Shown one piece after another: positions 33,530 to 56,179 of a DNA stretch of 59,740 nt. A model generated the notes under the pieces. It ran no database searches, had not been told where the DNA came from, and worked only from the letters and a program-made list of their open reading frames with translations. The stretch spans positions 1-59,740 of the forward strand of contig JAWOIQ010000148.1 of the NCBI GenBank assembly GCA_046484585.1. Direction: 5' to 3'. The first letter of the stretch is position 1. Each line of letters starts with the position of its first letter. The stretch is from Desulfurivibrionaceae bacterium. GTDB lineage: Bacteria > Desulfobacterota > Desulfobulbia > Desulfobulbales > JAGXFP01. The translations under genes were made by a program, and so were the position numbers.

Positions 33530-33558
33530 GAATTTGATTTCTGGCGCTAACTCATTTT

Positions 33559-36597: not shown

Positions 36598-37381
36598 AAC
36601 TGACTCCGAGCATAAAAAAGATTTCTTCCCTCAACTCCTGCAACTCCGGCGCGGTTTTCGGGTCGCGGGGATGGGGGAAGTCCAGCTTGCGGTTCAGCTT
36701 CACCTGGGCCGGGCGGCCGCTCAGGATCACGACCCGGTCGCCCATGATCAGGGCATCGTCGATATTATGGGTGACCAGCAGGATAGTCTTGCCCAGATAA
36801 AGATGCATGTTGACTACTTCCTCACGCATCTTCATGTGAGTCAGGAAATCGAGGCCGCTGAACGGTTCATCCATGATAAGCATCTCAGGGTTGACCACCA
36901 GGGCGCGGGCCAGTTCGGCCCGGCGCTGCATGCCGCCGGACAACTGGTGGGGATAGTGGTTTTCGAAGCCTTCCAGCTCGACCATGTCGATATACTCCTG
37001 AATGGTCTCTTCCCGTTCGACGGGATCATTGAGCCGGCGGATCCCGAGTTCGATATTCTGCCAGACCGTCATCCAGGGCAGCAGGCCGTTATGCTGATAT
37101 ACGAAGATGTTGTCGGGACTTGGTTTCGACAGTTGGTGACCGTCCTGCAAAACCCGGCCGGAGCTCGGTTGCTCGAAACCGGCGATAATCCGCAGCAGGG
37201 TCGATTTTCCGCAGCCCGATGGTCCCAGGATACAGACCATCTCCCCGGCCTCGAATTCAAGGTCCAGATCCTCAAGGACCGTTACCGTCCGGTCGGATTC
37301 AGGCCTGCCGTCCTTATCCCGCTTATGTTGACGCCGTTCGATAAACTCTTTGTTCAGATTTTCGATGAGGATGTGGCCCAT
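36587..37381 (-). CDS. NitT/TauT-family ABC transporter ATPase
   Basis: GPSGCGKST, LSGGM, MDEPF, VTH. Confidence 0.93.
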   Translation of the reverse strand: MGHILIENLNKEFIERRQHKRDKDGRPESDRTVTVLEDLDLEFEAGEMVCILGPSGCGKSTLLRIIAGFEQPSSGRVLQDGHQLSKPSPDNIFVYQHNGLLPWMTVWQNIELGIRRLNDPVEREETIQEYIDMVELEGFENHYPHQLSGGMQRRAELARALVVNPEMLIMDEPFSGLDFLTHMKMREEVVNMHLYLGKTILLVTHNIDDALIMGDRVVILSGRPAQVKLNRKLDFPHPRDPKTAPELQELREEIFFMLGVSYAV

Positions 37382-37425
37382 GGTAGTTGTTTTTCCTGAA
37401 AAAATTGCAGGGTGACCGAACTCGG

Positions 37426-38196
37426 TTATCTGTGGCCCATGGTTCCCCAGGCCGCCGACTCGATGTTCATCAGCTGGCGCATAATGTAGTCGAGCAGCAG
37501 GCCGATCACCCCGATCACCACCATGCCGACCATCACATAGTCCATGCGCAGGGCATTTCTGGAGTCAAGGATCAGATAGCCAAGGCCTGACTGAACCGCG
37601 ATCATCTCCGCCGCTACCACTACCAGCCAGGCGATGGTTATGGAGAGCCGCAGGGCCGTGACGATGGCCGGAATGGTGGCGGGAACCATAATCTTGGTAA
37701 AGCTTTCCAGCCGGCTGAAATTGAAATTGTTTGCAACCTGAAAATAGATAGGATTGATCGAGCGGACGGCGATGGTAGTTGCGACCAGCAGGGGAAAGAA
37801 GCTGGAAAGAAAGATCAGAAAGATTGCCGGCAAGTCGCCGATCCCGAACCACAGCATCGATAAGGGAATCCAGGCCAGTGGCGAGATGGGCCGCAGGAAA
37901 TGGATAACCGGATTTACCATGAGACGCAGAGGTTTGCATCTGCCCAGACACATTCCCAGAGGAATGCCCAGGAACATGGCCAGATAAAAACCGGCGGTGA
38001 CCCGATACAGACTGGCTATCGAATGCCTGATCAGGGTGCCGTTGCCGGTCAGTTCGATCAGACTGGCCAGGACCGCCCCCGGCCCCGGGAATATCTGGGC
38101 GCTCCAGCCGCTGAAACGGGCGGTCAGTTCCCAGAGCGTCAGGGCGCCCAGAAAGGCGGCAGCGGCATAAATAAAGGCTGGTTTTGAGGATTCCAT
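37426..38196 (-). CDS. NitT/TauT-family ABC transporter permease
   Basis: LRPISPLAWIPL, VVAAEM, GLGYLI. Confidence 0.92.
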   Translation of the reverse strand: MESSKPAFIYAAAAFLGALTLWELTARFSGWSAQIFPGPGAVLASLIELTGNGTLIRHSIASLYRVTAGFYLAMFLGIPLGMCLGRCKPLRLMVNPVIHFLRPISPLAWIPLSMLWFGIGDLPAIFLIFLSSFFPLLVATTIAVRSINPIYFQVANNFNFSRLESFTKIMVPATIPAIVTALRLSITIAWLVVVAAEMIAVQSGLGYLILDSRNALRMDYVMVGMVVIGVIGLLLDYIMRQLMNIESAAWGTMGHR

Positions 38197-38270: not shown

Positions 38271-39203
38271 TCATGATTTTTCGCCGCGAAGTTCCTCGGC
38301 CAGTTCCATATATTGGCGGGCCGAACTGCTGTTGGCGTCATATTGGGCGACGGGAACGTTCATTATTTGCGACTCCTGAAGTTTTACATCGAAGTCGATG
38401 GTGGTCGCGAAGACCTTGTCCCTGTATTTGTTTTTGATCTTGTCATGGATCACCTTGGTGGCGGTGCTGTTCTCGTTGAACATGGTGATCAGGATTTTGT
38501 AATCGATACTGTCGTTCTGTTTGCGCCTGACGATATCGATTACTTCCTCAATATGGGCGACGCCGTGCATCGACAGGTATTCGCACTGGGTCGGGATTAT
38601 TACGAAATCGGAGGCCATCAGGGCGTTTAAGGTAAAAAATTCGATGGTGGGCGGTGTGTCGATGATGATATGGTCGACCTTGTCCTTGATCCCTTCCAGT
38701 TTATCCCGGAGTATTTGTTCGAAGTTAGGCCGGTTGATATTCTTTTTCATCAACAGAGCCAGATTCGGTCCGGACGGCAGCAGCCAGAGATTAGAGTACT
38801 TGGTTCTGGTAATTACATTGGCGAGGGTGGCGCCGGGGACATGGAGCAGATCGTAAAAGGTTCTGTTTTGCCGGTTGAGCCCCAGGGCGATGGTCAGACT
38901 TGCCTGCATGTCGAAATCGATCAACAGCACCCGTTTGCCGCGCAGGGCCAGGGCCATGCCCAGATTGATGGCGCTGGAGGTTTTGGCGACCCCGCCTTTC
39001 TGGTTGCTGACGGCAATGATCCGATGGGGAGGGACGGCCGGCAGGGCCGCTTCTTCCGGCAGATCAAGGGGTTTTATCTCCTCGGGCTTCTGGACGGTAA
39101 AGATCTTGCCGCATTTTGAGCACTTGACCTTGAAGATCGACTGGCTGATCAGTTCATCGGCAACATTGTAGCGGGTTTCGCACTGTTCGCAGGTGATTAT
39201 CAT
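38271..39203 (-). CDS. ParA-family ATPase with N-terminal MJ0042-type zinc ribbon
   Basis: CEQC...CSKC; deviant Walker A NQKGGVAKT; LIDFDMQ; IIDTPP. Confidence 0.9.
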   Translation of the reverse strand: MIITCEQCETRYNVADELISQSIFKVKCSKCGKIFTVQKPEEIKPLDLPEEAALPAVPPHRIIAVSNQKGGVAKTSSAINLGMALALRGKRVLLIDFDMQASLTIALGLNRQNRTFYDLLHVPGATLANVITRTKYSNLWLLPSGPNLALLMKKNINRPNFEQILRDKLEGIKDKVDHIIIDTPPTIEFFTLNALMASDFVIIPTQCEYLSMHGVAHIEEVIDIVRRKQNDSIDYKILITMFNENSTATKVIHDKIKNKYRDKVFATTIDFDVKLQESQIMNVPVAQYDANSSSARQYMELAEELRGEKS

Positions 39204-39290: not shown

Positions 39291-40331
39291 TCAACCCATT
39301 ATGGTTTCGATCTGCCCGACGATTTCATTTTCCTCGACAAGGTAGTCTACGGCTCCCTGTTCCACAGCGTGCTGGGTCAGATTGGGGTAAACGCAGGTAT
39401 TGGTGCTCTGGGCGATGGTCGCGCCATCTTTTTCCTTGATCTTGGCAAAGCCGACGGCCCCGTCGTTGCCTACTCCGGTCAGGAGAAGGCCGATGGTGTT
39501 ACGTTTAAATACTTCGGCGGCCGAGGAGAACAGCAGGTCAAGGGGCTTCTCCACCCCTGCCGATACTCCGATGATCGCCTCGCCGTCACCATTGGTTGCG
39601 ATGGTCACCGCGTTTTCGTTCGAGGCTATATAGCAGGTTCCCTGTTCCATCACAGTGCCGTCCCTGGCGATTTCTATCTTCCAGTCCGTATGCTCGTCGA
39701 ATTTCCGGACGAATGACTCGAGGATCTGGGAGGCGATGTCCATGACGATGACCGTGGTGGCCGGCAATTGCGGGGAAAGATTGGAGAGCAGCCGGATGAA
39801 GGTATTGGGTCCGGAGATGGTGGTGCCGATAGCGATGATCGACTCCAGATCCTGAAAGCCGTAGCGTTGGCTGAGGGATTGTTCGACATCGAGTTTCGAG
39901 AGCCGGACCCGCCTGATATTTTCGATATTGACCGCGGTGGCGATCTTGATCCGGTCGATGATTTTCCGGCTGGCGCTGTGGATGTCCCGCGAGACCGCGC
40001 CGGAAGGTTTCGGCACGAAATCGACCACTCCCAGGCGCAGGGCCTCGAAGGTTATGGAGCCGTCGTTGTAAAGCGAACTCAGGACCACGATCGGTATCGG
40101 CGCCTCGATCATGATATGGCGGACCGCCCTGATCCCGTCCATCACCGGCATGTCCATGTCGAGGGTGATGACGTCCGGCCGTAGCTCCTTGACCTTTGCC
40201 AGCCCTTCAAGACCGTTTTTGGCGGTTCCCACCACCTCGAGCATCGGATCGGATTCGAGAATGTCGCTGACCGCCTTGACCATGAAGGCGGCGTCATCGA
40301 CTACCAGCACTCTGATCTTTTCATTGTCCAT
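39291..40331 (-). CDS. cheB: CheB-like response regulator with degenerate methylesterase site
   Basis: Intact receiver (VDD, LDMDMP, KP); GTTISGP in place of GASTGGP, MDI in place of QHM, GNDGA retained. Confidence 0.85.
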   Translation of the reverse strand: MDNEKIRVLVVDDAAFMVKAVSDILESDPMLEVVGTAKNGLEGLAKVKELRPDVITLDMDMPVMDGIRAVRHIMIEAPIPIVVLSSLYNDGSITFEALRLGVVDFVPKPSGAVSRDIHSASRKIIDRIKIATAVNIENIRRVRLSKLDVEQSLSQRYGFQDLESIIAIGTTISGPNTFIRLLSNLSPQLPATTVIVMDIASQILESFVRKFDEHTDWKIEIARDGTVMEQGTCYIASNENAVTIATNGDGEAIIGVSAGVEKPLDLLFSSAAEVFKRNTIGLLLTGVGNDGAVGFAKIKEKDGATIAQSTNTCVYPNLTQHAVEQGAVDYLVEENEIVGQIETIMG

Positions 40332-40383
40332 ATAGGTCCCGTATTATTTCGTGGTCCAGGTTGCCGAGCCGCGAAACACTTCT

Positions 40384-43300
40384 TCAGTGAATGGTTTCCG
40401 GGCCGGCCGCTTCGGCGCTCGGCACTTTTTTCATGCCCCCGCCGGCCTTGATGACCCGGTTTTTGTTTTTACGACTCATGGTCTGGGCTCTGGAGCGTTC
40501 GATCTGTTTTTCGGAGGTCATCTTGACCAGTTCATAGATATCGAGAATCAGGGAGATCCGGCCGTCGCCGATGATCGTTGCTCCGGAGAAACCGCTCTCC
40601 TCCCGGAGGTAGTCGACCAGAGGCTTGATCACAACTTCTTCCTGGCCGATCAGCTCGTCGACCACCAGGCCGATCTCCTGCATGCCGGTGGTGACGATGA
40701 CCACGAAGGACTGGCTGATGTCCCTGCTGGCGCCTTCAATCCCGAAGACATCGGCCAGCCGGAAAATGGGCATGGTCGTATCGCGCATATGAATAACCTC
40801 GACGCCCTCGATGGTGGAGGTGTCATGTTCGAAGATCCGCAGGGTTTCTTCAACCACCGACAGGGGAATGGTGAAAAGTTCATCGCCGACCCGGACCATC
40901 AGGGCCTGGATGATGGCCAGGGTCAGGGGGATCTTGATCCGGATCATGGTCTGCACGCCCTGCTGGGACTCGACCTCGACGGTGCCGTTCAGCTTTTCGA
41001 TATTGGTTTTGATCACGTCCATGCCGACCCCGCGCCCCGAGGTTTCGGTGGCGGTTTCGGCGGTGGAGAAGCCCGGCATCATGATGAACCTTCTCGCCTC
41101 GGCATCGGAAATGCGGGAGATCTCCTGCTGGCTTATCAAGCCCTTGGCGACGGCCTTGCTCTTGATCTTGTCGATGTCGATGCCGCGGCCGTCATCGGTG
41201 ATTTCGATGACGATATGATTGCTTTCATGATAGGCTTCGAGGACCAGGGAGCCGGTTTCGTCCTTGCCCGCTTTGCGCCTTTCCTCCGGGGTTTCGAGGC
41301 CATGGTCGACCGCGTTGCGGATAATGTGGATCAGGGGGTCGGAGATTTCCTCGATCACCATTTTATCGAGTTCGGTTTCCTCGCCGCGAACTTCCAGATT
41401 GACTTTTTTGCCGGTCTTGTGGATCAGGTCGCGGACCAGGCGCGGGTAACGGTTGAAGAGCTGGGCCACCGGCAGCATCCTTATTTTCATTACACCTTCC
41501 TGAAGCTCGTTTGATACCCGGCCCAGGCCGACGGTGGCTTCGCCCAGCTTGAAGGTCAGTTCCCTGATCGGTTTCAAGCCCTTGGCGTCGAAGCCGCCTT
41601 CCTCCTTCATCTCCTGTTGAAACTCCTTCAGGTAGTTGAAGATCTGGGCAAAATAGGCGCGGCTGACCACCAGTTCGCCCACCTGGTTCATCAGCGAATC
41701 GATCTTGTCGGAGTCGACCCGGATGCTCTGCTTATAGGTGCGTTCACCGCCCTCCCGGCGTTCTTCCCGGCGGCGTTCAGTCCGGCGGCGTTCCTCCCCG
41801 CCGAGATCCGGCGTCGCGACTTCGCCTGTTGCCTCGACAGGTTCCTCGCCGCTTTCCGTCCCGCCCGGCTCTTCATCAAGCTCGGGGGCTGAGGGTGTTT
41901 CAATCGGGGCTTCCTCGTTTACAGAGGACGCCTCGCCAAACAACATCTCTTCCAGGATGCCGTGCAGGGGTTCCATGCCCTGCCGGTTGCCGCCGGCCAT
42001 GGCGGTGTCGATGGAGTCGCTCAGGGTTGCGAACAAATCATCTTCGTTGCTGCGATCTTCGCCGCCGGAAGAAGGTTCGGCCCGGGGGCCGTCCGTATTA
42101 TCGGCGAATAACCGAGGTTCCTCTTCGGGGCCGCTATCCGGCAAGTCCGGAAACAGAGCGCTCATCAAGTCAAGATAGTCGTTTATAAAACCCGGATCAT
42201 CATCCATTCCGGCTTCGCTGATCTGGGCGTGCCATCTCTCGTAGAGATCGACCAGGTTTGCGTATCCCATATAGTTAGCCGAGGACTTGAGTTTGGCGAC
42301 GCGGTCCCGGCAGAGTTCGAGCAGGTTTGTCCGGTCGCCGGTCCCGCCTTCGGCCATGGCCCGGCGGATTGAGCCAAGGTTTTCCGAAACCTGTTTGAGG
42401 AAGATTTCGAACAGTTCGTCGTCGTAAAGCTCTTCCGAAATTTCGGCCCTGATTGTTTCTTCATCGGTTGCACACACCCCGGCAACTGACGGAACGGCAA
42501 GGTCTTCGCCACCCTGGTTTTCCGCGAAAGGGTCGGCGGCGGCCGGTTGCGACTCGTTCAGCCGGGGGATGGTCCGGAAAATCAGGGCCAGATGATCGTC
42601 CATAAAAGAAAAATCGGTTTCGGCGGATTCCGCGAGGCGTTCCCCGGCGGCGGAAAGTTCGGCCTGCCAGAGATCGTAGAGGCCAACCAGATTGGCATAG
42701 CTCATATAGTTGGCGGAAGACCTGAGGTTTGCCAGCAGATCCCGGCAACTCGCGAAGCTCTCCGCGCCGTTCGCAGGATCGTGCAATTGCGCGGTCAGCT
42801 GCCGGAGTTTGTCGAGATTGTTCCTGGTCTGCCCGATGAAAATATCGAAGAGTTCCTCATCGTGTTCCTCTCCCCGCAGTTCATTGCGGATGAGTTCTTC
42901 GTAGAGCGGTTCGGAGGAGGAGGCGAACAGCTCTTCCTGGTCCGGCCGGTTTGGTGGCGAATCCTCACCGAAAAAATCACCCAGTATCGAGGTGTCGAGG
43001 TCGTCGTCTTGGATCGAAGCCGCCGAGCCGCCGGCGATAACGTCGTCCAGGATGGAAGTGTCGAGGGCTTCTTCCAGGGCACTCCTCAGATCGAGCTCAT
43101 CGGAGGGGGCTTCCGCCGGGGGCTCTTCAGGACAATCCAGGGCCGGCGGGGCCTCATCCGATAATGACAGGATCCTGGCCAGCAGGTCATCAATTTCGCT
43201 TTTCTCGGCCTGATTGATTTCGAGTTCCTTGGTGAGGTTAATCAACCGGTCCCGGGTTTCGATCAAGGTGTCGATGATATCCTGATTTACTTTCTTCTCA

Positions 43301-43539
43301 CCCTGGCGCAGAAGATCGAGTAGGTTTTCCATCTTGTGGGACAGTTCCGAAACCCTGGGCAGACCGACGAACTGCGAGGCCCCCTTGATGGTATGGATGG
43401 CCCGGAATATATCGTTGAGGATTTCAAGGTCATCCGGCTCCCTTTCGAGTTTGAGCAGGCCTGATTCCATCTCTTCAAGATGCTCGTTGGCTTCGGTGAT
43501 GAAATCCTGAAGTAGCGATAAATCAATCATGATATCCAC
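40384..43539 (-). CDS. cheA: Chemotaxis histidine kinase with extra pseudo-Hpt domains
   Basis: FRAIHTIKG Hpt, NQVGELV dimerisation, IRNAVDHG, DDGRG, SGRGVGMDV, PLTLAI, P5 domain. Confidence 0.95.
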   Translation of the reverse strand: MDIMIDLSLLQDFITEANEHLEEMESGLLKLEREPDDLEILNDIFRAIHTIKGASQFVGLPRVSELSHKMENLLDLLRQGEKKVNQDIIDTLIETRDRLINLTKELEINQAEKSEIDDLLARILSLSDEAPPALDCPEEPPAEAPSDELDLRSALEEALDTSILDDVIAGGSAASIQDDDLDTSILGDFFGEDSPPNRPDQEELFASSSEPLYEELIRNELRGEEHDEELFDIFIGQTRNNLDKLRQLTAQLHDPANGAESFASCRDLLANLRSSANYMSYANLVGLYDLWQAELSAAGERLAESAETDFSFMDDHLALIFRTIPRLNESQPAAADPFAENQGGEDLAVPSVAGVCATDEETIRAEISEELYDDELFEIFLKQVSENLGSIRRAMAEGGTGDRTNLLELCRDRVAKLKSSANYMGYANLVDLYERWHAQISEAGMDDDPGFINDYLDLMSALFPDLPDSGPEEEPRLFADNTDGPRAEPSSGGEDRSNEDDLFATLSDSIDTAMAGGNRQGMEPLHGILEEMLFGEASSVNEEAPIETPSAPELDEEPGGTESGEEPVEATGEVATPDLGGEERRRTERRREERREGGERTYKQSIRVDSDKIDSLMNQVGELVVSRAYFAQIFNYLKEFQQEMKEEGGFDAKGLKPIRELTFKLGEATVGLGRVSNELQEGVMKIRMLPVAQLFNRYPRLVRDLIHKTGKKVNLEVRGEETELDKMVIEEISDPLIHIIRNAVDHGLETPEERRKAGKDETGSLVLEAYHESNHIVIEITDDGRGIDIDKIKSKAVAKGLISQQEISRISDAEARRFIMMPGFSTAETATETSGRGVGMDVIKTNIEKLNGTVEVESQQGVQTMIRIKIPLTLAIIQALMVRVGDELFTIPLSVVEETLRIFEHDTSTIEGVEVIHMRDTTMPIFRLADVFGIEGASRDISQSFVVIVTTGMQEIGLVVDELIGQEEVVIKPLVDYLREESGFSGATIIGDGRISLILDIYELVKMTSEKQIERSRAQTMSRKNKNRVIKAGGGMKKVPSAEAAGPETIH

Positions 43540-43553
43540 TCTCTGATTAGTTA

Positions 43554-43695
43554 GTGCATGTCCATAAATGGTCTTTTTGCCCGATAACTTCGTCGCCGCG
43601 GAGTCGGAAAGTGCTCACGTACCTGAGTACGCTGCGCTTTTCCGACATCCTTGCTTTTCGTTCTCGGACAAAAATCCTCATTTATCGACAGACAC
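43554..43695. repeat. Palindromic element F
   Basis: Imperfect TIR GTGCATGTCCATAAATG / CATTTATCGACAGACAC, nested stems, centre CGTAC-CTGA-GTACG; supplies the stop codon of the upstream gene. Confidence 0.75.
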
Positions 43696-44434
43696 CAGGT
43701 TGCGATTTCCCGGCGTCGTTTTTGGCTAATGCCATATTTCCCCGCAAGGTTACGTCGAAGAATTCGAATTGGCTGGTGAGATCCTGCATCTGCACCAATT
43801 CCGCCCTGATTAGTTCGAGACGGTCCAGAATCTGTTCCCGGGAAACTCCCTGGGGTTTCTCCAGGGTTTTGATGGTCTCTTCGACAATCCCCAGATTGTG
43901 GTCGCTGAGATTCCAGACCAGCAGGAGAACCTCTTGCAGATTCATGGCCAGGGAGTTGACGTTTTCACCGATCGCGCCGATCGAACAGCCGGCGTTCTCG
44001 CTGTCCCGGACCAGACGGTCCAGGCGGCCGTCGGCCATGTCCCGGCTGAACTTCTCGAGTTTATCAAGGGGCTGAATAATGTTACGGACGAAAAAGACCA
44101 TAAACAGGATCAGGATGCCCGCCAGAACCAGGGTCATGACGGTCAAGCCGAATTCCAGGGCGACATGGGTGCGGGCCAGGGCTTCATTGCCGAGGGTTGC
44201 CGGGTTTTTGCCGGCTTGCTGTTTGTCGTCGGCAATGGCGATGGTATCCAAGATCGCCTCGCCCCGGTTATGGTGGTAAATGGCAACGACACTCAAGAGC
44301 GAAGCCAGCAGAATCAGGATGGTGAAAAAAACCAGGGTTTTCTGGTGGAGCCCGGAACCGATTACACCCAGCCGATTATTGGAGGGCCCGGAATCCATTT
44401 CCAATTTGGAGCTTAACAAAGCGCAGTTCTCCAT
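43682..44434 (-). CDS. 2TM-HAMP protein without a signalling domain
   Basis: Two TM helices, IIQPLDKLEKFSRDMADGRL...IGAIGENVNSLA HAMP, short coiled-coil tail; AAAGG RBS before ATG 44434. Confidence 0.75.
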   Translation of the reverse strand: MENCALLSSKLEMDSGPSNNRLGVIGSGLHQKTLVFFTILILLASLLSVVAIYHHNRGEAILDTIAIADDKQQAGKNPATLGNEALARTHVALEFGLTVMTLVLAGILILFMVFFVRNIIQPLDKLEKFSRDMADGRLDRLVRDSENAGCSIGAIGENVNSLAMNLQEVLLLVWNLSDHNLGIVEETIKTLEKPQGVSREQILDRLELIRAELVQMQDLTSQFEFFDVTLRGNMALAKNDAGKSQPGVCR

Positions 44435-44459
44435 TGTTATGTACCTTTTGGGCTGTGCC

Positions 44460-44630
44460 GAATATTCGTAACCGTTCAGCAGTACCACATCTTCGGACGA
44501 TCGGCCCGGCTTACGTACACGAGGTACGCGGCGCCGGTCCGCTTGTCCAAATCTGCGCCACTGCTGAACGGTTACAGGCCGGCAGTTTTGGGTACTTTGG
44601 CGACCGCCCCGGTGAACGGTTAAGAATATT
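44460..44630. repeat. Palindromic element G
   Basis: Perfect 16-bp TIR GTAACCGTTCAGCAGT (44468-44483) / ACTGCTGAACGGTTAC (44560-44575); centre CGTAC-ACGAG-GTACG; second right end TGAACGGTTAAGAATATT at 44613-44630. Confidence 0.8.
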
Positions 44631-44656
44631 AAGGCCTGAACCCTGGGGAGCGGTGG

Positions 44657-45010
44657 TCATATTCCGTTGATCAGATCCAGGATTTCGGCGGCCTTGTACT
44701 TGTTGACGAAACCGACGGCGCCCATCTCCTCCACCTCTTTCTGGTACTTCGCCTCGTTAAGGTTCGAGAGGAAGATGATCTGGGCGTTCGCGTCAAGATT
44801 TAAAATCTCCCTGGCGGCGGTAATGCCGTCCATGCCCCGCATGGTGATGTCCATGGTCACCAGATCCGGTTTCAACTCCTGATACATCTCAACCGCCTCT
44901 TCCCCGCTTTTGGCCTGGCCGATTACGATGTGGCCGGGGGGATTCAGGATATTGGCGATCATTTTTCGCATCATCGATGAATCATCAACTACCAGAATGC
45001 GTTTACTCAT
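44657..45010 (-). CDS. cheY: Single-domain response regulator
   Basis: ILVVDDS, PDLVTMDITM, conserved Lys; located within the che cluster. Confidence 0.85.
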   Translation of the reverse strand: MSKRILVVDDSSMMRKMIANILNPPGHIVIGQAKSGEEAVEMYQELKPDLVTMDITMRGMDGITAAREILNLDANAQIIFLSNLNEAKYQKEVEEMGAVGFVNKYKAAEILDLINGI

Positions 45011-45011
45011 G

Positions 45012-45530
45012 CTATTCGTCCCCTTCGGCTTCATCCATTGACTTTAGTTTCTTGAACTCTTCCTGCAACAGAATCCGTTTAAAATCGAGGAGGATCAGCA
45101 GCTGGGCGCCGATATCGCAAACCCCCCGCAGATACTGGCTTTCCAGCCCGGCCTTGATGATGTCGGGCGGCGCTTCGATGGTGTTCTCCTGGATCTTTAT
45201 AACCTCGGTTACCGAGTCGACAATAAAGCCGGTGGTCTTGTTCTGGATATCGAGGATCAATATCCAGGTGTCATCGTGATCGGACTCGCTGCTCAGTAAA
45301 CTCAAGCGTTTACGCAGATCGATAACCGGCAGGATGTTGCCGCGCAGGTTGATGACTCCTTCCACGAATTCCGGTGAGTTTGGAACCGGGGTTATCGGGG
45401 CGGCCCGGATGATCTCCTGAACCATTAAGATATCGACACCGAACAGCTCCTTGCCGATCGTGAAACCGACCAGCTGCATCAACTCCTGTTCGGCTTCAAG
45501 TTTCTCGGTAGCTGCATACCTGTCAGCCAT
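45012..45530 (-). CDS. cheW: Chemotaxis coupling protein
   Basis: FGVDILMVQEII, VPNSPEFVEGVINLRGNILPVIDL, GFIVDSV. Confidence 0.95.
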   Translation of the reverse strand: MADRYAATEKLEAEQELMQLVGFTIGKELFGVDILMVQEIIRAAPITPVPNSPEFVEGVINLRGNILPVIDLRKRLSLLSSESDHDDTWILILDIQNKTTGFIVDSVTEVIKIQENTIEAPPDIIKAGLESQYLRGVCDIGAQLLILLDFKRILLQEEFKKLKSMDEAEGDE

Positions 45531-45696
45531 GGCGTGGTTTCTCCCTTCACTGGTAAAATTTTTGGTCAGCCGCGGAAAAGGGCAACCGGGTTTTTGAGTT
45601 AAAAAAACAGCAGCGCCGCCGCGGGGTGGATGGGTTTGAGCGAAAACACACCCCGCGCGGCGACATCGAGTATCAAAAACCAGCGGTTCCGGCCGG

Positions 45697-48255
45697 TTAA
45701 GCCCGCTGTACCTTGAACTGCTCAACCTGAAGTTTCAGGGCCTGGGACTGGCTTTGCAGCTCGTCGGTAATATTCATTACGATTCCGGCGCCTTCGGAGG
45801 TCTGGGTCGCCGCCGCCGAGGACTGGTTCGAAATTTCCATTACCGCCTGGGACCGTTTGGCCTGCTCGCCGGTCATCACTGCCATTTCCTTGGTCCGGCT
45901 GACGATCTCGTGCATTTCCGTGTTGATGTCGGCGGCGCCCTGGTTGGCCTGCCGGACCTGTTCGGTGATTTCCGCCGATTTTTCCTGCAGGGCCTTCAGG
46001 GCGGCCTCGGCGGCCTGCCGACGGGGACCCTGCTCAATAGCCATCGCACCGATGTTCTCGGCCAGATCGTTGAGCTCCTTCATCAGGGTCTGCACCTGGC
46101 CGGTGCTTTTGGCCAGCATGGTCGAGACCGTGGAGATCTCGGTGATCGCCTCCATGTTTACCTTGCCGCTCTCGTCGATCCTGGCAAGCGCCTTTCGGGA
46201 ACTGTCGGTCAACTGGGTTCCCTCTGTTACCCGGCTGGTCGAATCCTTGATAAGCTGGGTGATCTCCTTGGCGGCCTCCGAGGAGCGCTGGGCGAGTTTA
46301 CCAACTTCGTCGGCAACAACCGCGAAACCTTTACCGTGGGCGCCGGCCCGGGCCGCCTCGATAGCGGCGTTAAGGGCGAGGAGGTTGGTCTGCTCGGCAA
46401 TATCGGTAATAACCCCGATGATCTCGGAGATTTGCTCGGAAGATTCGGAGATGGAGCGCATACCTTCAACGGTGGCGGCAACCGAGTTGCTGCCTTCCTC
46501 GGCCGCGGCCAGGGAGGCGGTGCCGTGCTCGGTGGCCCGGGCAACCGCTTTGTTCATCTCATCCACCGCCTTGGCGATTTCGTTTACCGAAGCGGTAACG
46601 CTGACCACCATCTTGCCCTGCTCCTGGGCGGTGGCGGCAACCTTGCCGCCGGTCTCGCCCATCTCGGCCACCCTGGCGGCGGCTTCCTGGGCTTCCCGGT
46701 TCTGGGCCTCGGCGGCCTCGGCGGCCTCTTTCATCGATTGCAGCAGAGCTTCCAGGGTCTTGGTTGATTTGGTCGCCGCGTTTTTCTGACCGGTGGAGGC
46801 CTGGTTGACCATACCGGCGGTGCCGGCCATTTCCTTGATGATCGAGGCGGCCCGGGAGGTTTGCTCCACCTCGTGATCGGCCCTTGTCTTGTTGCCCGAA
46901 GCGCGTTTAGCCACCTCGCCGGCGCCGGTTGCCACCTGCTGGGAGGCGTTGGTTACCTCGACGAATGACCTGTTCAGCTCGTCAATCATGGAGTTGAAGT
47001 CACCCGCCATCATGCCTACCTCGTCCTGGCCCGCAACCGGAACCTTGATGGTCAGATCCTTCTCCCGGGCAACTTTCCGGATCAGGTTGGCGATACCGGC
47101 AATCGGCACCGAGATTGCCTGGGCGATGAAGTAGGCGATCAGGAAGGCGAAGAAGGTCCCGATAATGATACCGGCGATATTCTGCACAGTCGCGGCGGCC
47201 GTAGTGCGGTCGGCGGCGGCATTCGCGGCCTGGATAATCTCTTTCGCATCCGCCTCTACCTGTCCAACCTTGTCGGCAAGGACGATACCGAGGTTGTCGA
47301 TCGAGGTATCGAGATCGGCCAGGGTCTGCTCGATTTTGACGGTGGCGGCGTGATTGTCCATAACCCGCATGGCGGCCGGTTCGAACCGGTTGTTGAGCAT
47401 GGTCAGGGTCGTGGCGGCCATCGACTTCAGATTGCTGTCGGTAAGGGCCCTGATCTGCCCCATATTTTTGGTGTTGGCGCCCTTTGCCATGCCGTTCAGC
47501 CAGATTTTGGCCTTGTCGATATGTTCGGCGAATTCTTGCCGGAACGCGGCATGTTCGGCGCTGTCGGATGACTGGACAAATTCTTCAATGGCCAATCGGG
47601 CGGCGCCGGTCGACAGGGCGATTTCCATGGAAAGGTCTTTCCATTTATTCTCCCTCTCGGCCAACGACTGGACCGAGGTTCCCGAGCGGATCGCCGAATC
47701 GACCAGCCCGTCGACGCCCTCTTCCAGTTCGGTCAGCGCGGCCAGCAGCTCCCGGAAGGATCCTTTCATGTTCGCCATCCCTGCCGCTTCTTCTTTTTCG
47801 GCGGCAAACTTGGCGTTCATGTTCCGGTAAACCTCCTGCATCTGCGGAGTGAATTCGGCGTCGTGCATTCTGGCGGCCTCGGCGACCTCATTGGCCAGCT
47901 TCTGGTCTTCAACCTTATAGATGGTGCCCATCGCGGTTTCGCCGCCCTTGAGAATCGCCGCGGCGTAACCGTCGAATTCCGCGTCGAACTCCTGGTGCTC
48001 CCGCCACATCTCGTCGAGTTCGGCCTTGTCCCCGGCGGTGAGGATCTCCATGAGGATCAAGCGGTCGTTGGTCAGGGCCAGGTCCATTTCCATCGAGGCG
48101 TCGGCTACGGAGGCCGCCTTGTTGACCTCGGTCATCGCGCCCCTGATCGCCGAGATGTTAAAATATCCCAATCCACCGACGATCAAGAGCACAAGGATTA
48201 CCGGCGTGAAGCCGAGCAACAGTTTGTTCTGGATCTTTAAGTTTTTCCAATTCAA
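45697..48255 (-). CDS. Methyl-accepting chemotaxis protein with very long signalling domain
   Basis: TTG start with AAGGAGG RBS; 2 TM, HAMP (GQDEVG), [20 protein letters not shown]...GFAVVADEV. Confidence 0.95.
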
Positions 48256-48372
48256 GGCACCCTCCTCCTTTTGTGAGTTTGCTTAATTCAGTTGTAGTTT
48301 TTTCGTAAAAATATGCTTAAGCGGCCCCGCGGCCGCAGTTCTTCCCGGCTGAAACCGCCCCGTCTCCAGGGG

Positions 48373-49413
48373 TCAGGCACAACATAAATTTATCGCCGCG
48401 GCCAGGCCGGTGTCACCTACGACAAACTTTGTCCGGCATCTGGCCAGGGCGTTTTCGGGCATTTCCCGGTACATGCATGATCGCGGTTTCTGGACGACGG
48501 CCTCGCCGCCGTGGGCGATGATTTCGCCGAGGCCTTCGGCTCCGTCGTCGCCGGTGCCGGAGAGGATCACGCCTACGCTCTTCCGGCCGACCAACTCCGC
48601 GGTCGACAGCATCAGCATGTCTATTGCGCCGCGCCGGGTCGAGAAGGGGGCCGGGCTGACATGGAGCAGAAATTCACCGTCCTCTTCGCGGATGGTTATG
48701 TACTCGTCCCCGGAGCCTATGTAGCAGACCCCTTTTTTCAAGGGGGCGCCCTCGGCAGCCCTTCTGACCGGCAGCTCTGAACATCGGTCCAGATAATCGA
48801 CAAAAGCGTCGATGTGCTCGGTGGCCGCGTAAAGGATTGCGATGCAGGCGGCGGACAGTCCGGGGTCGAGGCCGGGGATGAATTTCAGCAGGGCGCTGTA
48901 ACCGCCCTCGGCCGCGCCGATGATGACAATTCTTTTTATTATCTCGTCGCTGGTTCCGGCGGCGGCCGGAGATTTTCGGACCCCGGTTCTGATGAATTGC
49001 ATGGCCTCCAGTTCCACTCCGGCGGCGGTTGCTACCTTGTCGGTTATTTTAGCGGTTTGATCCCGCATGTCGCCGGCGAGGGAGGATGGTTTGGCGAGGA
49101 AGTCCACGGCCCCGTATTTCAGGGAGTCGAAGGTCACGGTGGCGCCGTCCCTGGTGAGGGTGCTGAGCATTATGGTCGGAGTCGGGAATTGGATCATCAT
49201 GTGCTTCAGGGTGGTGATGCCGTCCATTCCCGGCATGTTGACGTCCAGGACGATCACATCCGGGCTCAACCGGGGAATCAGCCGCAGGGCCTCGCTGCCG
49301 TTCACCGCCTCGCCCACAACCTCCATGGCGTTGTTGGCCGCGAAGATGTCCTTGACCGCTTTTCGCATCAAGCCTGAGTCGTCGACAATCAGTATTCTGG
49401 TTTTTCGGGCCAT
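48373..49413 (-). CDS. cheB: Second CheB-like response regulator with degenerate methylesterase site
   Basis: Intact receiver (VDDS, LDVNMP, KP); GAAEGG in place of GASTGG, LYA in place of QHM, GDDGA retained. Confidence 0.85.
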   Translation of the reverse strand: MARKTRILIVDDSGLMRKAVKDIFAANNAMEVVGEAVNGSEALRLIPRLSPDVIVLDVNMPGMDGITTLKHMMIQFPTPTIMLSTLTRDGATVTFDSLKYGAVDFLAKPSSLAGDMRDQTAKITDKVATAAGVELEAMQFIRTGVRKSPAAAGTSDEIIKRIVIIGAAEGGYSALLKFIPGLDPGLSAACIAILYAATEHIDAFVDYLDRCSELPVRRAAEGAPLKKGVCYIGSGDEYITIREEDGEFLLHVSPAPFSTRRGAIDMLMLSTAELVGRKSVGVILSGTGDDGAEGLGEIIAHGGEAVVQKPRSCMYREMPENALARCRTKFVVGDTGLAAAINLCCA

Positions 49414-49498: not shown

Positions 49499-51247
49499 TT
49501 ACTTTAAATATTTTCTGACTCTGGCAGTCAATTCTTCCGGGGTAAAGGGTTTGGTCAGATATTCGTTGCAGCCGGACATCCTGCCCTTGACCTTGTCGAT
49601 CATGCCGTCCCTGGCCGTAAGCATGATGACCGGAATTTTCCTGAAATTGCTGTTGTGTTTCATGGTGGATAAAACCTGATAACCGTCCATGCCCGGCATG
49701 ACGATGTCAAGGAGAACCAGGTCCGGGGTCATCTCGTTGAACCTGGCCATTGCCTCGATGCCGTCTTTTGCCTCAATAACGTCAAAACCTTCATGCCGGA
49801 GGATGACGGTGATCACCTTGCGGGTGGTGGCGCTGTCCTCGACCACCAGGACCGTTTTGTCCCGGCGGTTTTCGGTGGCGGCAACAATTTTTTTATTCGG
49901 CGCCTGATCGGAGTTATCGCCCATGGGCAGCTCGACATTGGCCATATGGTCCAGGAGGAGGTTCAGTTGCCGGCGGTACTGTTCATTGTCCGGCTCAAGT
50001 TTTCTGGTCTTGTATAATTGGTCGAGCCCCTCTTCCCATTGATTGCTATTAAGATGGGCCAAGGCGAGGTTGAAGTGGACCCGATGCTTTTTCTCGACCA
50101 GAATAATCTTGGTGTACCGGTGGATCGCCTGGTCGATGATCTCTTTGTTTACCTGTTTTTTGGGAGATCTCAGCATGGCCGGGGTAATCCGGAAATAGGC
50201 CTTGCAGTGCGCGCAGGACTCGGGACTTTCGATATAGGGGGTCCGGCAGAAAGGGCAGTGTCTGATGGTCGTGCTTTTGGAGCAGCCATTTTCGTAGGCT
50301 ACTTGCAGCTTTTTGATTTCCTCGCCGACTTCCGGATCGTTCTCCGCCAGGATTTTGGCGTTATCCAGGGCGGCCTCAACCGCTTTTATGTTGTCGGTCA
50401 CCCTGGAATACCAGAGCCAGGCCTCGCTATTGCGCGGATTCTGTTTCAGCAGGGTAGCCAGCATCTGCTGGGCCTGCTTGTTCTCGTTGGCTTCCGCCCG
50501 CCTGATTGCCTGGTAGAGCAGATCTCGGGTGTCGGACTTTTTGAGCGGCTCGGAAGATATCACATCTTTTTTAAGCTCATCCTTGCGCCTGGCGCTTTCC
50601 AGGATCAAGGTTTTGAGTCCGAAGCCGATTTTTTTTTCCTGTTTTTCCTCGGGTAGACTTTTTATCCGGAGCCTGGCGCTTTTCCAGCCGATCATGGTCA
50701 TGGCCGCGCGATCGGCGGTCAGATCTTGATATTCCGCATTGTGGAGCCTGCCCTTGACGAAGTAGAAGCGGCCGGTCTCCTTCCTGGCGTTGCTGGCTTC
50801 CAGGATACAGCTCTTCTCTTCCATTTCGATAAGCTGCAGAAAGCCGGCGACGGAGAGGCCGTCAAGGGAGGTACCCTGTTCGAACTGGGCCAGGGCATCG
50901 ATGATGGCGTTGGCGAGGGCCTGGAGATCAATGGGTTTTTCGAGATAGTGAAAGATGCCGCGCTGGTCGAGGATATCTTGAATTTCGGCGCTGCCGAAGG
51001 CGGTCATGACGATGCAGGGGACTCTGGGCTGATTCTGGCTCATGTAGGCGAGCAGTTCCAGGCCGTCCATCTTCGGCATGTAAAGATCGGTAACCAGAGC
51101 GGAAACAGTCTCTTTTTTGAGCAGGCATACCGCTTCTTCACCGTTGGCGGCGGTCAGGATCTCGAAATCGGATTCGTATTTCCGCAGACCCAGGACGATG
51201 GGGTTCAGCAGTTCCTGGGAGTCGTCGACGATCAGCACCTTGTTCAT
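49499..51247 (-). CDS. REC-DUF4388/PATAN-TPR-zinc ribbon-TPR-REC regulator (PatA/PilG-like)
   Basis: TDLYMP receiver; LQLIEMEEKSCIL...GRFYFVKGRLHNA; AWLWYS TPR; CPFC/CAHC; C-terminal PVIMLTARDGMIDKVKGRMSGCNEYLTKPF. Confidence 0.85.
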   Translation of the reverse strand: MNKVLIVDDSQELLNPIVLGLRKYESDFEILTAANGEEAVCLLKKETVSALVTDLYMPKMDGLELLAYMSQNQPRVPCIVMTAFGSAEIQDILDQRGIFHYLEKPIDLQALANAIIDALAQFEQGTSLDGLSVAGFLQLIEMEEKSCILEASNARKETGRFYFVKGRLHNAEYQDLTADRAAMTMIGWKSARLRIKSLPEEKQEKKIGFGLKTLILESARRKDELKKDVISSEPLKKSDTRDLLYQAIRRAEANENKQAQQMLATLLKQNPRNSEAWLWYSRVTDNIKAVEAALDNAKILAENDPEVGEEIKKLQVAYENGCSKSTTIRHCPFCRTPYIESPESCAHCKAYFRITPAMLRSPKKQVNKEIIDQAIHRYTKIILVEKKHRVHFNLALAHLNSNQWEEGLDQLYKTRKLEPDNEQYRRQLNLLLDHMANVELPMGDNSDQAPNKKIVAATENRRDKTVLVVEDSATTRKVITVILRHEGFDVIEAKDGIEAMARFNEMTPDLVLLDIVMPGMDGYQVLSTMKHNSNFRKIPVIMLTARDGMIDKVKGRMSGCNEYLTKPFTPEELTARVRKYLK

Positions 51248-51712
51248 GCGATCGCCTCTAACCCGTTGCAGTTAGAAAAAAGATTTGGTAATGACATTCG
51301 GAAGTCCCCCCCTTACACAGGACATCGAGCATATTATCACGTAACTCAATGAAAAGTGAAGTGTTTTTTTGACTTCCGGCTCATATAACAAAAGGTTGGG
51401 CCTTTGTAAATAATTTAATAGATAGGGTTTGGTCAGGCTTTTTGGTCAGGGGTCTTCTTCCTTTTCGGTTCTGATATTCGGTTGATATTTATAGTAAATT
51501 AGATTTCATGGATAATTGGGCCACCGTAAGATTAGGTGCGACGGTGTGGTATTTGCCGGGCCCGAAGAGTAACTTTTGGATTTATGGAACTTTTTTTTAA
51601 TTGACATTGTTTGCCTCTCATTTTCTTATATAGGCCGATTGTTGTGGTCCAGGGGGGGCCTGGCTTGTACGTAATATTTTCAACTAAATTTATTCTGATG
51701 ACAGGAGAGATC

Positions 51713-52879
51713 ATGAAAATCCGTGGAGAAATCTTAAGTTCTTCCCTCAGGGGCGCTGTTTCGAGGACGGCTTTTTTGTTGACGGCGGCGGTTGCCGTGG
51801 CGGTCATGCCGGCTGTTTCCCATGCCGGCGAGGCGGAGCTTAAAGCCGAGATCGACAAGATCTGGTCCAAGCTCGCCAATGTGGAGGTCGCGGCCGGGAT
51901 TACCGAGCCCGCGCCCGTCGAACCGACCTGGAGCGACCGGCTGACCATCGGCGGCGTGGTTGAAGTCGAGGCCGGGGTTTATGACGACGACACCTTCACC
52001 GAGAGCGATATTGCGGTGGCCACCGTCGAACTGGGCATCGAGGCCGAGGTCAGCGACTTCAGCTCCGCCCATGTCCTCCTCCTCTATGAGGACGATGATG
52101 ATCTCCAGGTCGACGAGGCCTTTATCACCCTCGGCAACCTTGAAAGAAATCCCTTTTATCTGACCGCCGGTAAGCTTTATGTGCCCTTCGGTAATTACGA
52201 GTCCCAGATGGTTTCCGATCCCCTTACCCTGGAGATCGGCGAAGCCCGGGAAGACGCGCTCCTGGTAGGGATTGAAGTTGCGGGGTTTTATGTCTCGGCC
52301 TACGGATTTAACGGCGACACCCAAGACGACGGCGATGACGTGGTCGAGCATTATGGCGCCAATCTCGGCTATGCCTTCGAGGCCGAGACGGTGAGTTTCG
52401 ATATCGGCGGCGGCTGGATCAGCTCCATCCGCGACAGCGACGGGCTTTCCGATATATTAGGAGCTATTGTTGAAGATCCGTTGGATCCGTTGTCGCCTTT
52501 TGTGGAAACTGAATATATCCAAGGCTATAGCGCCCATCTGATCGCCGGTCTCGGTCCGCTGACCCTGATCGCCGAATATCTCACCGCCGCCGACGATCTG
52601 CTGGCCGCCAATCCCTTCGTGACCAATTCACGGATCTCCGCCTATAACGTTGAAGCGGGCGTGTTCTTTCCCCTGGCCGGCCGGGATGCATATGTTGCCG
52701 TCGGATACCAGGAAACCGATGAGGCCCTCTGGGCCGGTTTGGCCGAGAAGCGGATCGTGACCGCCGTGGCGGTGGAGATCATGGACGGCACCTCCCTGGC
52801 CCTGGAATGGTTGAATGAAGAGGATTACGACGGCGTAGACTCGGATATCTATACCCTGCAGCTGGCCGCCGAGTTCTAA
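51713..52879 (+). CDS. Outer-membrane porin (LbtU-like)
   Basis: AGGAG RBS, signal peptide, short coiled coil, AGKLYVPFG, SDPLTLEIGE, terminal Phe. Confidence 0.75.
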   Translation: MKIRGEILSSSLRGAVSRTAFLLTAAVAVAVMPAVSHAGEAELKAEIDKIWSKLANVEVAAGITEPAPVEPTWSDRLTIGGVVEVEAGVYDDDTFTESDIAVATVELGIEAEVSDFSSAHVLLLYEDDDDLQVDEAFITLGNLERNPFYLTAGKLYVPFGNYESQMVSDPLTLEIGEAREDALLVGIEVAGFYVSAYGFNGDTQDDGDDVVEHYGANLGYAFEAETVSFDIGGGWISSIRDSDGLSDILGAIVEDPLDPLSPFVETEYIQGYSAHLIAGLGPLTLIAEYLTAADDLLAANPFVTNSRISAYNVEAGVFFPLAGRDAYVAVGYQETDEALWAGLAEKRIVTAVAVEIMDGTSLALEWLNEEDYDGVDSDIYTLQLAAEF

Positions 52880-55577: not shown

Positions 55578-55630
55578 ACAAAGATCATTTATGGACAGGC
55601 ACCAGTTTTACTACGCGGAGGTGAAAACAT

Positions 55631-56179
55631 ATGCACCGAATGACCGAACAGCACCTTATCAACGCCTTCGGCGGTGAGAGCATGGCCAATATGCGCTATC
55701 TTCATTTCGGTAATCAGGCCGAAAAGGAGAATTTCGCCAATGTGGCCCGACTCTTTCGGGTCATTGCCTATGCCGAATTCATCCATGCCGGCGACCATTA
55801 TCGCGAAGTTAAGCACCTGAAGGGCGGTTTCGTGGCCAACAGCATGGGCGCCTTCGGGCCCGGCGATACCGAAAAGAACCTGCAACTGGCGATAGACGGC
55901 GAAACCTTCGAGATCGAGGAGATGTACCCCTCTTATATCGAAGTCGCCAGAATGCAGGGTGAAAAGGGGGCGCAGCGCTCTTTCGAGTGGTCTTACGCCA
56001 CCGAGAAGATGCATAAGAAACTGTTCACCAACGCGCATGAGCATGTGAAGAGCGGCAAGGACACGGAACTCGGCGCGGTCCAGGTCTGTGAAGTCTGCGG
56101 TTATACCCTGGAAGGAGAGGCGCCGGACAAGTGTCCGGTCTGCAACGCAAAGAAAGAAAAATTCACCGCCTTCGAATAA
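55631..56179 (+). CDS. rbr: Rubrerythrin
   Basis: AFGGES, AEFIHA, GETFE..EMYP, EKMH, CEVCG...CPVC. Confidence 0.93.
   Translation: MHRMTEQHLINAFGGESMANMRYLHFGNQAEKENFANVARLFRVIAYAEFIHAGDHYREVKHLKGGFVANSMGAFGPGDTEKNLQLAIDGETFEIEEMYPSYIEVARMQGEKGAQRSFEWSYATEKMHKKLFTNAHEHVKSGKDTELGAVQVCEVCGYTLEGEAPDKCPVCNAKKEKFTAFE

Follow-up and report, generated by a model that had tools for sequence, protein, structure and literature searches.

A 59,740-nucleotide stretch of DNA from a Desulfurivibrionaceae bacterium (GenBank assembly GCA_046484585.1, contig JAWOIQ010000148.1), referred to here at its full length as the window, carries a chemosensory gene cluster that encodes two CheB-like proteins, CheB_A and CheB_B. 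Open reading frames (ORFs) were annotated by Pfam profile search, and genes were named from the matches together with hydropathy, which was used to call transmembrane segments. The region from 30.7 to 51.2 kb formed one co-directional array in which every gene lay on the minus strand. The first gene of the array encodes a 582-amino-acid response regulator with the domain order REC-PATAN(DUF4388)-TPR-REC, REC being the receiver domain (49499 to 51247; Response_reg twice, 178 bits; DUF4388, 44 bits; TPR). It is followed by genes for CheB_B (P0002; 48373 to 49413), an MCP (methyl-accepting chemotaxis protein) of 852 amino acids as listed, with a 4HB-type sensor, two transmembrane segments, HAMP and MCPsignal (45697 to 48255), CheW (45012 to 45725; 126 bits), a single-domain CheY-like response regulator (44657 to 45034; 88 bits), a 268-amino-acid ORF product (43682 to 44488), a 1051-amino-acid CheA (40384 to 43539), and CheB_A (P0001; 39291 to 40331), which adjoins a gene for a 310-amino-acid protein with an MJ0042-type zinc ribbon and a ParA/MinD-like ATPase domain (38271 to 39203; Pfam and NCBIfam matches). 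CheB_A and CheB_B are each 346 amino acids long and consist of a REC domain and a CheB-fold domain, and alignment indicated that both are missing the Ser-His-Asp triad that defines the CheB methylesterase/deamidase. We propose that the CheB fold of this cluster is now probably a phosphorylation-controlled binding module.

Triad columns were assigned by HMMER alignment to the CheB proteins of Salmonella (1A2O) and Pectobacterium (6YMZ), with E values of 1e-43 to 1e-47. The Salmonella triad was numbered S164/H190/D286 as in the initial annotation of this DNA, and the 6YMZ triad is S165-H191-D287 with D56 as the phospho-acceptor, as given in a figure legend (PMC7698151, Fig. 6). In CheB_A, the motifs GTTISG (from residue 169), VMDI (196), and GNDGA (288) placed T171, D198, and D290 (codons 39819 to 39821, 39738 to 39740, and 39462 to 39464) onto the Ser, His, and Asp of GASTGG, QHM, and GNDGA. 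In CheB_B, the motifs GAAEGG (from residue 166), ILYA (193), and GDDGA (288) placed A168, Y195, and D290 (codons 48910 to 48912, 48829 to 48831, and 48544 to 48546) at the same three sites. The initial annotation had read both proteins as apparent pseudoenzymes with a retained GxDGA Asp and intact receivers, and its coordinates, its motifs, the open minus-strand frames, and the retained features were all borne out, as was the degeneracy in the alignment to Salmonella CheB (Thr-Asp-Asp in CheB_A and Ala-Tyr-Asp in CheB_B). The pseudoenzyme label itself held for the loss of the Ser-His pair in both proteins but was not established for CheB_A, the nucleophile site of which is the second Thr of GTTISG, such that Ser is swapped for another hydroxyl residue.

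Response_reg scored 79.8 bits in CheB_A and 82.7 bits in CheB_B, the phospho-acceptors were located at D58 (40158 to 40160) and D57 (49243 to 49245), respectively, and the receiver residues DD, D58/D57, Ser/Thr, and Lys (K108) showed no variation when 17 and 18 members of the families were aligned. Pfam CheB_methylest (PF01339) scored 133.2 bits for CheB_A and 124.7 bits for CheB_B against a cutoff of 24. The NCBIfam models for CheB scored both proteins below their cutoffs, at 263.2 and 257.4 against 293 for NF001965 and at 233.2 and 218.9 against 342 for NF009206. CheB_A and CheB_B share with canonical CheB (1A2O/1CHD, 6YMZ, and 3SFT/3T8Y) the REC and CheB folds, roughly 30% identity, the phospho-acceptor Asp, the third triad Asp, and a gene location near CheA, CheW, and an MCP. 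Both are CheB family members by domain and by fold but should not be filed as methylesterases. In public annotation, all proteins of this kind are named "chemotaxis protein CheB" or "methylesterase," labels that probably misstate what they do.

Absent catalytic residues could indicate that both genes are CheB pseudogenes produced by recent decay, or else artefacts of sequencing or assembly, and nothing beyond the missing residues speaks for that explanation. Both frames are open and full length, and the same substitutions recur in hundreds of homologues, down to 45 to 59% identity and across many taxa. Family patterns were read from the best 120 homologues of each protein, which were 59 to 100% identical to CheB_A and 45 to 100% identical to CheB_B. 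At the three triad columns, CheB_A homologues were TED (56), TDD (35), SED (26), NED (2), and SDD (1), with neither the His nor the canonical triad in any of the 120. CheB_B homologues were AYD (77), AHD (21), GHD (8), SYD (8), GYD (2), SHD (2), SND (1), and HYD (1). With the canonical triad in 0 of 120 homologues for CheB_A and 2 of 120 for CheB_B, orthologues do not keep the intact triad that recent decay would predict. Moreover, because 108 of the 120 CheB_B homologues have no nucleophile, CheB_B is almost certainly catalytically dead as far as its sequence tells.

The substitutions were also set against CheB proteins at large. The catalytic-like domain of CheB_A was searched against 1.84 billion cluster representatives, 150 proteins were returned, and Ser-His-Asp was present in 126 of 152 rows made up of the 150 representatives and the two queries. 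Among the 24 noncanonical library rows, 20 fell in the A or B clade or were fragments omitted from the tree described below, four of these 20 having just the Asp across the triad columns. The remaining four were two tandem proteins (P0246 and P0255) and two long REC-PATAN-REC-CheB proteins (P0273 and P0349) that were placed in the B clade. A search of the ESM Atlas with the CheB_A domain returned generic CheB clusters only. At gene loci in other genomes, where triads were read by hmmalign, 25 of 25 CheB proteins outside the module defined below were Ser-His-Asp. Since both samples are dominated by the canonical triad, the substitutions in CheB_A and CheB_B far exceed what chance would give. 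P0246 (570 amino acids) and P0255 (557 amino acids) each carry a tandem pair of CheB domains without a receiver, and the copy that aligns with the query is degenerate (Asp-Tyr-Asn in P0246 and Ala-His-Asp in P0255); they may represent another, independent case of CheB-domain disarmament.

Selection on the two families was estimated as dN/dS by the Nei-Gojobori method on the esterase-like domain, in pairs with at least 80% amino acid identity. The ratio was 0.028 to 0.179 in 22 CheB_A pairs and 0.027 to 0.093 in four CheB_B pairs, and three pairs of canonical CheB given the same treatment as a control yielded 0.034 to 0.085. Many dS values exceeded 1.5 and were saturated, such that the ratios are rough and the lower-dS pairs are the reliable ones; all ratios were far below 1. 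The proposal that both paralogues were retained by selection is thereby upheld, with values of 0.03 to 0.18 that are comparable to those of canonical CheB. Recent decay is refuted by the family-wide substitutions together with the dN/dS values, and we regard the probability that these are pseudogenes or artefacts as negligible.

What replaced the canonical residues was itself conserved. Of 27 columns conserved in at least 85% of the 126 canonical domains, the CheB_A consensus differed at 11 and the CheB_B consensus at 13; the Gly/Asp scaffold was kept in both and the canonical GMP motif was replaced. Near-invariant residues seldom seen at the corresponding sites of canonical CheB numbered 19 in CheB_A (for example, T170, F211, W217, Y315, P316, N317, and L318) and 14 in CheB_B (for example, E169, Y172, G262, and Y238). 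Both families have a derived Cys, C233 in CheB_A (97%) and C230 in CheB_B (99%), at a site that is Val, Ala, or Ile and never Cys in the 126 canonical domains. Both pockets also gained an acidic residue, in CheB_A by replacement of His with Glu or Asp and in CheB_B by replacement of Thr with Glu beside the old nucleophile. The pattern of conservation is one of remodelling rather than of erosion or recent decay.

One role suggested in the initial annotation was that of a phosphate sink, in which the receivers would draw phosphoryl groups off CheA while the C-terminal domains did nothing. The receivers are intact and show higher conservation (dN/dS, 0 to 0.09) than the C-terminal domains, five receiver domains are encoded in the cluster against a single CheA, with a sixth in a downstream hybrid kinase, and multiple CheY proteins act as phosphate sinks in other bacteria. 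A sink, however, requires only a CheY-sized protein, one of which is already encoded in the cluster, whereas the C-terminal domains are under purifying selection equal to that on canonical CheB, have kept their fold, have acquired 14 to 19 new near-invariant residues per family, and occur fused to PATAN or zinc-ribbon modules. A role as a phosphate sink alone fits poorly with strong constraint and family-specific invariant residues in the C-terminal domain, and we consider it very improbable.

The relationship of the two families was inferred from a tree of 77 catalytic domains (IQ-TREE, LG+C20+F+G4 PMSF), which was unrooted and in which the bootstrap had not fully settled. Support was 99/96 for A, 95/85 for B, and 100/93 for the separation of 47 canonical domains from A plus B, and a quick tree of 175 rows gave the same split with an SH-aLRT of 96. 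Because A and B together split from the canonical CheB proteins, they look like sister lineages that arose from canonical CheB with one duplication.

AlphaFold2 models had a mean pLDDT of 79.4 and a pTM of 0.61 for CheB_A and a mean pLDDT of 83.9 and a pTM of 0.80 for CheB_B. Superposition of the C-terminal domains on the catalytic domains of Thermotoga and Salmonella CheB gave TM-scores of 0.83 to 0.90 and root mean square deviations (RMSD) of 1.7 to 2.2 Å; for CheB_A, the values were 0.87 and 2.0 Å with 3SFT and 0.86 and 1.7 Å with 1CHD, and the CheB_B model reached a TM-score of 0.90 with 3SFT. The CheB_B model also superposed on closed, full-length CheB, with TM-scores of 0.79 and 0.80 and an RMSD of 3.9 Å for 6YMZ_A and likewise 0.79 to 0.80 and about 4 Å for 1A2O. 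The models thus predict that the CheB fold is kept in both proteins and that the closed arrangement of the receiver over the active-site pocket is also kept in CheB_B. A heterodimeric effector had been another suggestion, and prediction of a full-length CheB_A-CheB_B complex gave ipSAE values of 0.00 and 0.00, which is evidence neither for nor against a heterodimer.

An alternative explanation is that CheB_A is still an enzyme, with a center rebuilt from Thr/Ser-Glu/Asp-Asp or from Cys233 that acts as a deamidase, esterase, or other hydrolase on the MCP or another substrate and with CheB_B as its noncatalytic regulatory partner. CheB_A homologues carry a hydroxyl residue (Thr or Ser) at the Ser position in 118 of 120 cases, a carboxylate (Glu or Asp) at the His position in all 120, and the Asp in all 120, and the entropy of the triad columns (0.9 bit) is below the family median (1.12). 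Ser-Glu-Asp triads and Thr-nucleophile amidohydrolases occur in other folds. Moreover, new invariant polar residues (T170, N317, Y315, and C233) lie beside the old motifs, the fold is intact, and constraint is as strong as in canonical CheB. Against an altered enzyme, the A domain has no conserved His or other general base typical of the fold, the GMP motif has been replaced along with further columns that are fixed in canonical CheB, both proteins fall below the NCBIfam CheB cutoffs, and no CheR is available to make a methyl-ester substrate. At two distant loci (L053 and L055), A-like and B-like pairs stand beside CheR, with the A-like gene adjoining it, but one of the two genomes has a canonical-scoring CheB at a distance of about 12 kb, and the arrangement is not decisive as a sign of an active A esterase. 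We consider an altered enzyme unlikely.

The absence of CheR was followed through the genome. The assembly (3.38 Mb in 213 contigs, 98.4% complete) was searched in six frames with the CheR profile PF01739, and no CheR domain was found in the window and no stand-alone CheR anywhere in the assembly. The initial annotation was therefore right that CheR is absent from the cluster, and the genome-wide search that it called for returned one CheR domain, on another contig. That match, at the edge of contig C48 (C48:2-1882, L001), is the C-terminal part of CheR and is followed by a coiled coil and PAS-like sequence. A third CheB domain of the genome, and its only canonical one, lies at the edge of contig C55 (C55:3-899, L002), is without a receiver, reads by eye as GASAGG, His, and the Asp of GTDG, and continues into a CheR-N-like segment. 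The simplest explanation is that both pieces belong to a single CheB-CheR-coiled-coil-PAS fusion gene that the assembly has broken in two. A fusion of the known CheB-CheR-PAS/kinase kind is thus present in the genome, outside the cluster and with the only CheR domain. The single CheA (H-kinase_dim) and single MCP (MCPsignal) matches of the genome are both in the cluster, and neither FlhA nor CheD was found in the genome. With one CheA, one MCP, and no FlhA, the cluster is the sole chemosensory pathway of a nonflagellated organism. The 268-amino-acid ORF between cheY and cheA was considered as a hidden CheR and rejected, as it has two hydrophobic segments, a weak HAMP-like stretch (17.8 bits, under the cutoff), and no methyltransferase match.

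Features of the receptor were also examined. The cytoplasmic part of the window MCP had no match to the methylation consensus [ASTG]xx[EQ][EQ]xx[ASTG], a loose pattern for which a hand estimate puts the expected number of chance matches at about two to three. Among 31 MCP orthologues, the best methylation site was common to 13 and none was conserved; the only conserved Glu/Gln pairs were the EQ of the hairpin tip and one at residue 741. Orthologue C termini read QFK[IVL] and were without a pentapeptide tether. These features are weakly consistent with a methylation-free system.

Homologous loci were collected from one-per-species genomes, and 80 were kept, of which the 52 with an A-type gene are defined here as the module. 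Hosts included "Candidatus Electrothrix," Electronema, other Desulfobulbaceae, Desulfobacterales (including Desulfatitalea alkaliphila), Methylococcales, Chromatiaceae, Thiohalomonadaceae, and unclassified Gammaproteobacteria, and the source names of CheB_B homologues add Desulfonema magnum and Competibacteraceae. The gene order was [REC-PATAN]-CheB_B-MCP-CheW-CheY-[small HAMP membrane protein]-CheA-CheB_A-[zinc-ribbon ParA-like ATPase]-ABC transporter. Many loci end at contig ends, and within that limit, CheA was found at 45 of the 52, CheY at 37, CheW at 36, MCP at 32, CheB_B at 27 (score of at least 260), the small HAMP protein at 20, and the PATAN regulator at 12. The spread was patchy: of 401 genomes sampled evenly across the phylum, 5 carried the module, as did 5 of the 8 genomes available for the genus. 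We conclude that the module is nonflagellar and has spread horizontally.

CheR was found at 0 of the 52 module loci with the partial CheR as the query, and the same query found CheR at five canonical and two distant loci, which indicates that it works as a control. We conclude that CheR is never part of the module. Among other genomes of the same genus, one (G006; 95% complete, with the module) had no CheR match and no CheB-CheR fusion that we could find, and another (G012) had one 295-amino-acid CheR frame. Triads at the module loci repeated the family pattern: none of the 53 A-type genes had the His, 3 of 29 B-type genes were SHD, and none of 31 further CheB-like domains was canonical. These further copies lay between cheA and cheB_A at L016, L024, L048, and other loci and downstream of the ABC transporter genes at L012, L019, L027, L033, L035, L041, and L054. 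A third CheB-like copy, present in many relatives, was either REC-PATAN-REC-CheB (L016 and L024) or a related PATAN-REC-CheB form, was 480 to 690 amino acids long, and mostly read Gly-Ser-Gly, with the Asp lost as well, and a fourth copy in cable bacteria was about 465 amino acids long and mostly Gly-Asn-Asp. The third and fourth copies are absent from this window.

Gene fusions connected CheB_B to an output domain. Long forms of 528 to 597 amino acids accounted for 17 of the 120 CheB_B homologues, and residues 3 to 239 of one of them (P0149) aligned with the N terminus of the REC-PATAN regulator of the window (32% identity; E value, 4e-31). DUF4388 (PATAN) was detected at an E value of 0.1 or lower in eight of nine long forms scanned, only two of which were over the Pfam cutoff. 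By Pfam, the REC-PATAN-REC-CheB architecture was clear at L016, L024, L053, and L055, and PATAN-REC-CheB was present in the scanned frame of L048. In Synechocystis, PATAN is an output domain that binds PilB1 and PilC, and the cyanobacterial PATAN systems are without CheR and CheB, according to a preprint (10.1101/2021.06.11.447907). By analogy, fusion of B-family proteins to the PATAN regulator in other genomes points to type IV pilus output. The genome of this organism has eight T2SSE-family ATPase matches and five PATAN-domain matches, and no pilus genes were found within the window. On another contig (G000:C85:4500-12500, L102), a gene for a 767-amino-acid TPR-MshEN-T2SSE (PilB/MshE-like) ATPase is directly followed by a gene for a 437-amino-acid REC-PATAN protein.

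The neighbor of CheB_A raises a further possibility, that CheB_A is mainly an adaptor that ties the zinc-ribbon ParA/MinD-like ATPase to the array for positioning or inheritance, in the manner of ParP-ParC or PpfA. The zinc-ribbon ParA-like gene was present at 46 of the 52 module loci, every time within 300 nucleotides of CheB_A, and in one protein of the B family (P0217), the same type of zinc ribbon is fused to REC-CheB. ParA-like array-positioning systems occur in che clusters. Such an adaptor role draws mostly on gene adjacency, however, and leaves CheB_B and the PATAN fusions unexplained, and we consider it improbable.

The explanation that we favor, with moderate confidence, is that CheB_A and CheB_B are neofunctionalized CheB paralogues that serve as phosphorylation-gated binding modules in a methylation-free and probably pilus-directed pathway. 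Canonical CheB would have given rise to both by keeping the receiver, the fold, and the buried Asp while the Ser-His pair and nearby motifs were replaced. CheA would phosphorylate the receivers, phosphorylation would, as in CheB, expose the C-terminal domain on the face that lies under the receiver, and the freed domain would bind a partner without hydrolysis. The partner would most likely be the adaptation region of the single MCP, or else another array component, and binding might give feedback to the kinase or serve to tether or release other components. The component coupled to CheB_B would be the PATAN regulator, and that coupled to CheB_A may be the adjacent ParA-like ATPase. A pathway that works without receptor methylation is the best explanation of the pattern. 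Of the noncatalytic roles offered in the initial annotation, phosphorylation-gated binding would fit best.

Several observations weigh against phosphorylation-gated binding in a methylation-free, pilus-directed pathway. CheB_A keeps a hydroxyl and a carboxylate at the Ser and His sites along with the Asp and may be catalytic, and a few B-type proteins, counted above in both the homologue set and the module loci, keep the whole canonical triad. The grouping of A with B in an unrooted tree may be helped by long-branch attraction, the domain arrangement of the CheB_A model is uncertain at its pTM, and the models bear on fold rather than on triad geometry. The canonical CheB-CheR fusion could in principle modify the MCP, and with the assembly in so many contigs and short of complete, a missing cheR is not formally excluded. 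CheR genes are present elsewhere in four of the five other module-bearing genomes, where methylation in trans is possible, and the missing methylation sites of the receptor are weak evidence given the loose consensus. Finally, pilus output is argued only from domain analogy and gene fusion.

More tentatively, and with the odds in our view against it, the CheB fold could have been converted once, long ago, to a family of phosphorylation-gated "reader" domains that take the place of covalent methylation of the receptor. Together with the third and fourth copies of other genomes, CheB_A and CheB_B would then dock on the array according to kinase activity and reset the receptor, an adaptation that would need no CheR or CheB chemistry. 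Docking would also hold or release effectors of the PATAN and ParA-like kinds, by which type IV pili or gliding would be steered in filamentous bacteria of the sulfur cycle such as cable bacteria. In a bolder variant, CheB_A would be a new hydrolase, Thr/Ser-Glu/Asp-Asp or Cys based, that makes an irreversible or different receptor modification.

Unlike canonical CheB, the proteins of the module have Thr/Ser plus Glu/Asp (CheB_A) or Ala/Gly plus Tyr/His (CheB_B) in place of Ser-His, are changed at 11 to 13 of the 27 conserved columns and at GMP, have no CheR partner, and number two to four paralogues. Type IV pilus chemosensory systems, such as Pil-Chp and the cyanobacterial Tax/Pix systems with PatA-type PATAN-REC proteins, resemble the module in being nonflagellar and in combining a single dedicated MCP with a long CheA that bears additional Hpt-like repeats and with a response regulator that has a PATAN domain, a likeness drawn from domains and genes rather than from CheA, CheW, or MCP phylogeny. 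Pseudomonas Pil-Chp has PilK (CheR) and ChpB. In Bacillus, CheD/CheC and CheV provide methylation-independent adaptation by binding proteins, and the concept is alike in that receptor binding set by phosphorylation feeds back on the kinase with methylation unchanged. The Bacillus proteins, however, have unrelated folds, whereas the binder here would be a disarmed methylation enzyme and no CheD was found. The cyanobacterial systems, according to the preprint, have no CheB-like proteins (10.1101/2021.06.11.447907), and here such proteins are kept and even fused to PATAN. The alpha and beta che clusters of Geobacter were considered as instances of this module and rejected, as they have CheR and CheB and no MCP in the available part of their description (PMC2577667); the corresponding part of a Geobacter review held nothing relevant (PMC8396549). 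No description of CheB paralogues without the triad was found in the full-text literature, a scope that leaves out subscription journals and supplements.

Reversible methylation by CheR and CheB is regarded as a hallmark of chemotaxis-type adaptation, and this module has lost the methyltransferase and keeps two to four CheB paralogues in cable bacteria, other Desulfobacterota, methanotrophs, and sulfur-oxidizing Gammaproteobacteria. If phosphorylation-gated binding is correct, the module would represent a principle of adaptation or output that is new to chemosensory arrays and would be a clear example, in bacteria, of an enzyme fold that became a signaling adaptor. It would also offer a concrete handle on the steering of nonflagellated, gliding, filamentous bacteria.

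The remaining genes of the window add further features. CheA comprises an Hpt domain with the canonical motif AIHTIKG, two Hpt-like repeats, and dimerization, HATPase, and CheW-like domains. The repeats (residues approximately 262 to 300 and 407 to 445) have Ser at the position of the phospho-accepting His (L[RK]SSANYM) and are reminiscent of the Ser/Thr "Xpt" domains of Pseudomonas ChpA. Elsewhere in the window, three ORFs had no Pfam match, 51611 to 52879 (plus strand, 422 amino acids), 51532 to 51948 (minus strand, 138 amino acids), and 55589 to 56044 (minus strand, 151 amino acids); the first two overlap on opposite strands, and at least one of them is therefore probably not a gene. Downstream of the ParA-like gene are the genes of an ABC transporter (35563 to 38196), with a permease (37426 to 38196), an ATPase (36587 to 37381), and an NMT1-like binding protein (35563 to 36597). 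A homologue of the binding protein was present at 35 of the 52 module loci, across phyla, and the transporter may be a sensory input or a cotransferred function. Next is the hybrid histidine kinase with the order PAS-HisKA-HATPase-REC (33559 to 35409), matched at a score of at least 200 at 2 of the 52 loci. The array closes with a gene for a 956-amino-acid protein (30722 to 33592) that has three CheW-like domains, one transmembrane segment (residues 804 to 822), and a C-terminal LysM domain and that had homologues at a score of at least 300 at the three closest loci only; such a protein would act as a peptidoglycan-anchored scaffold of a cytoplasmic array.

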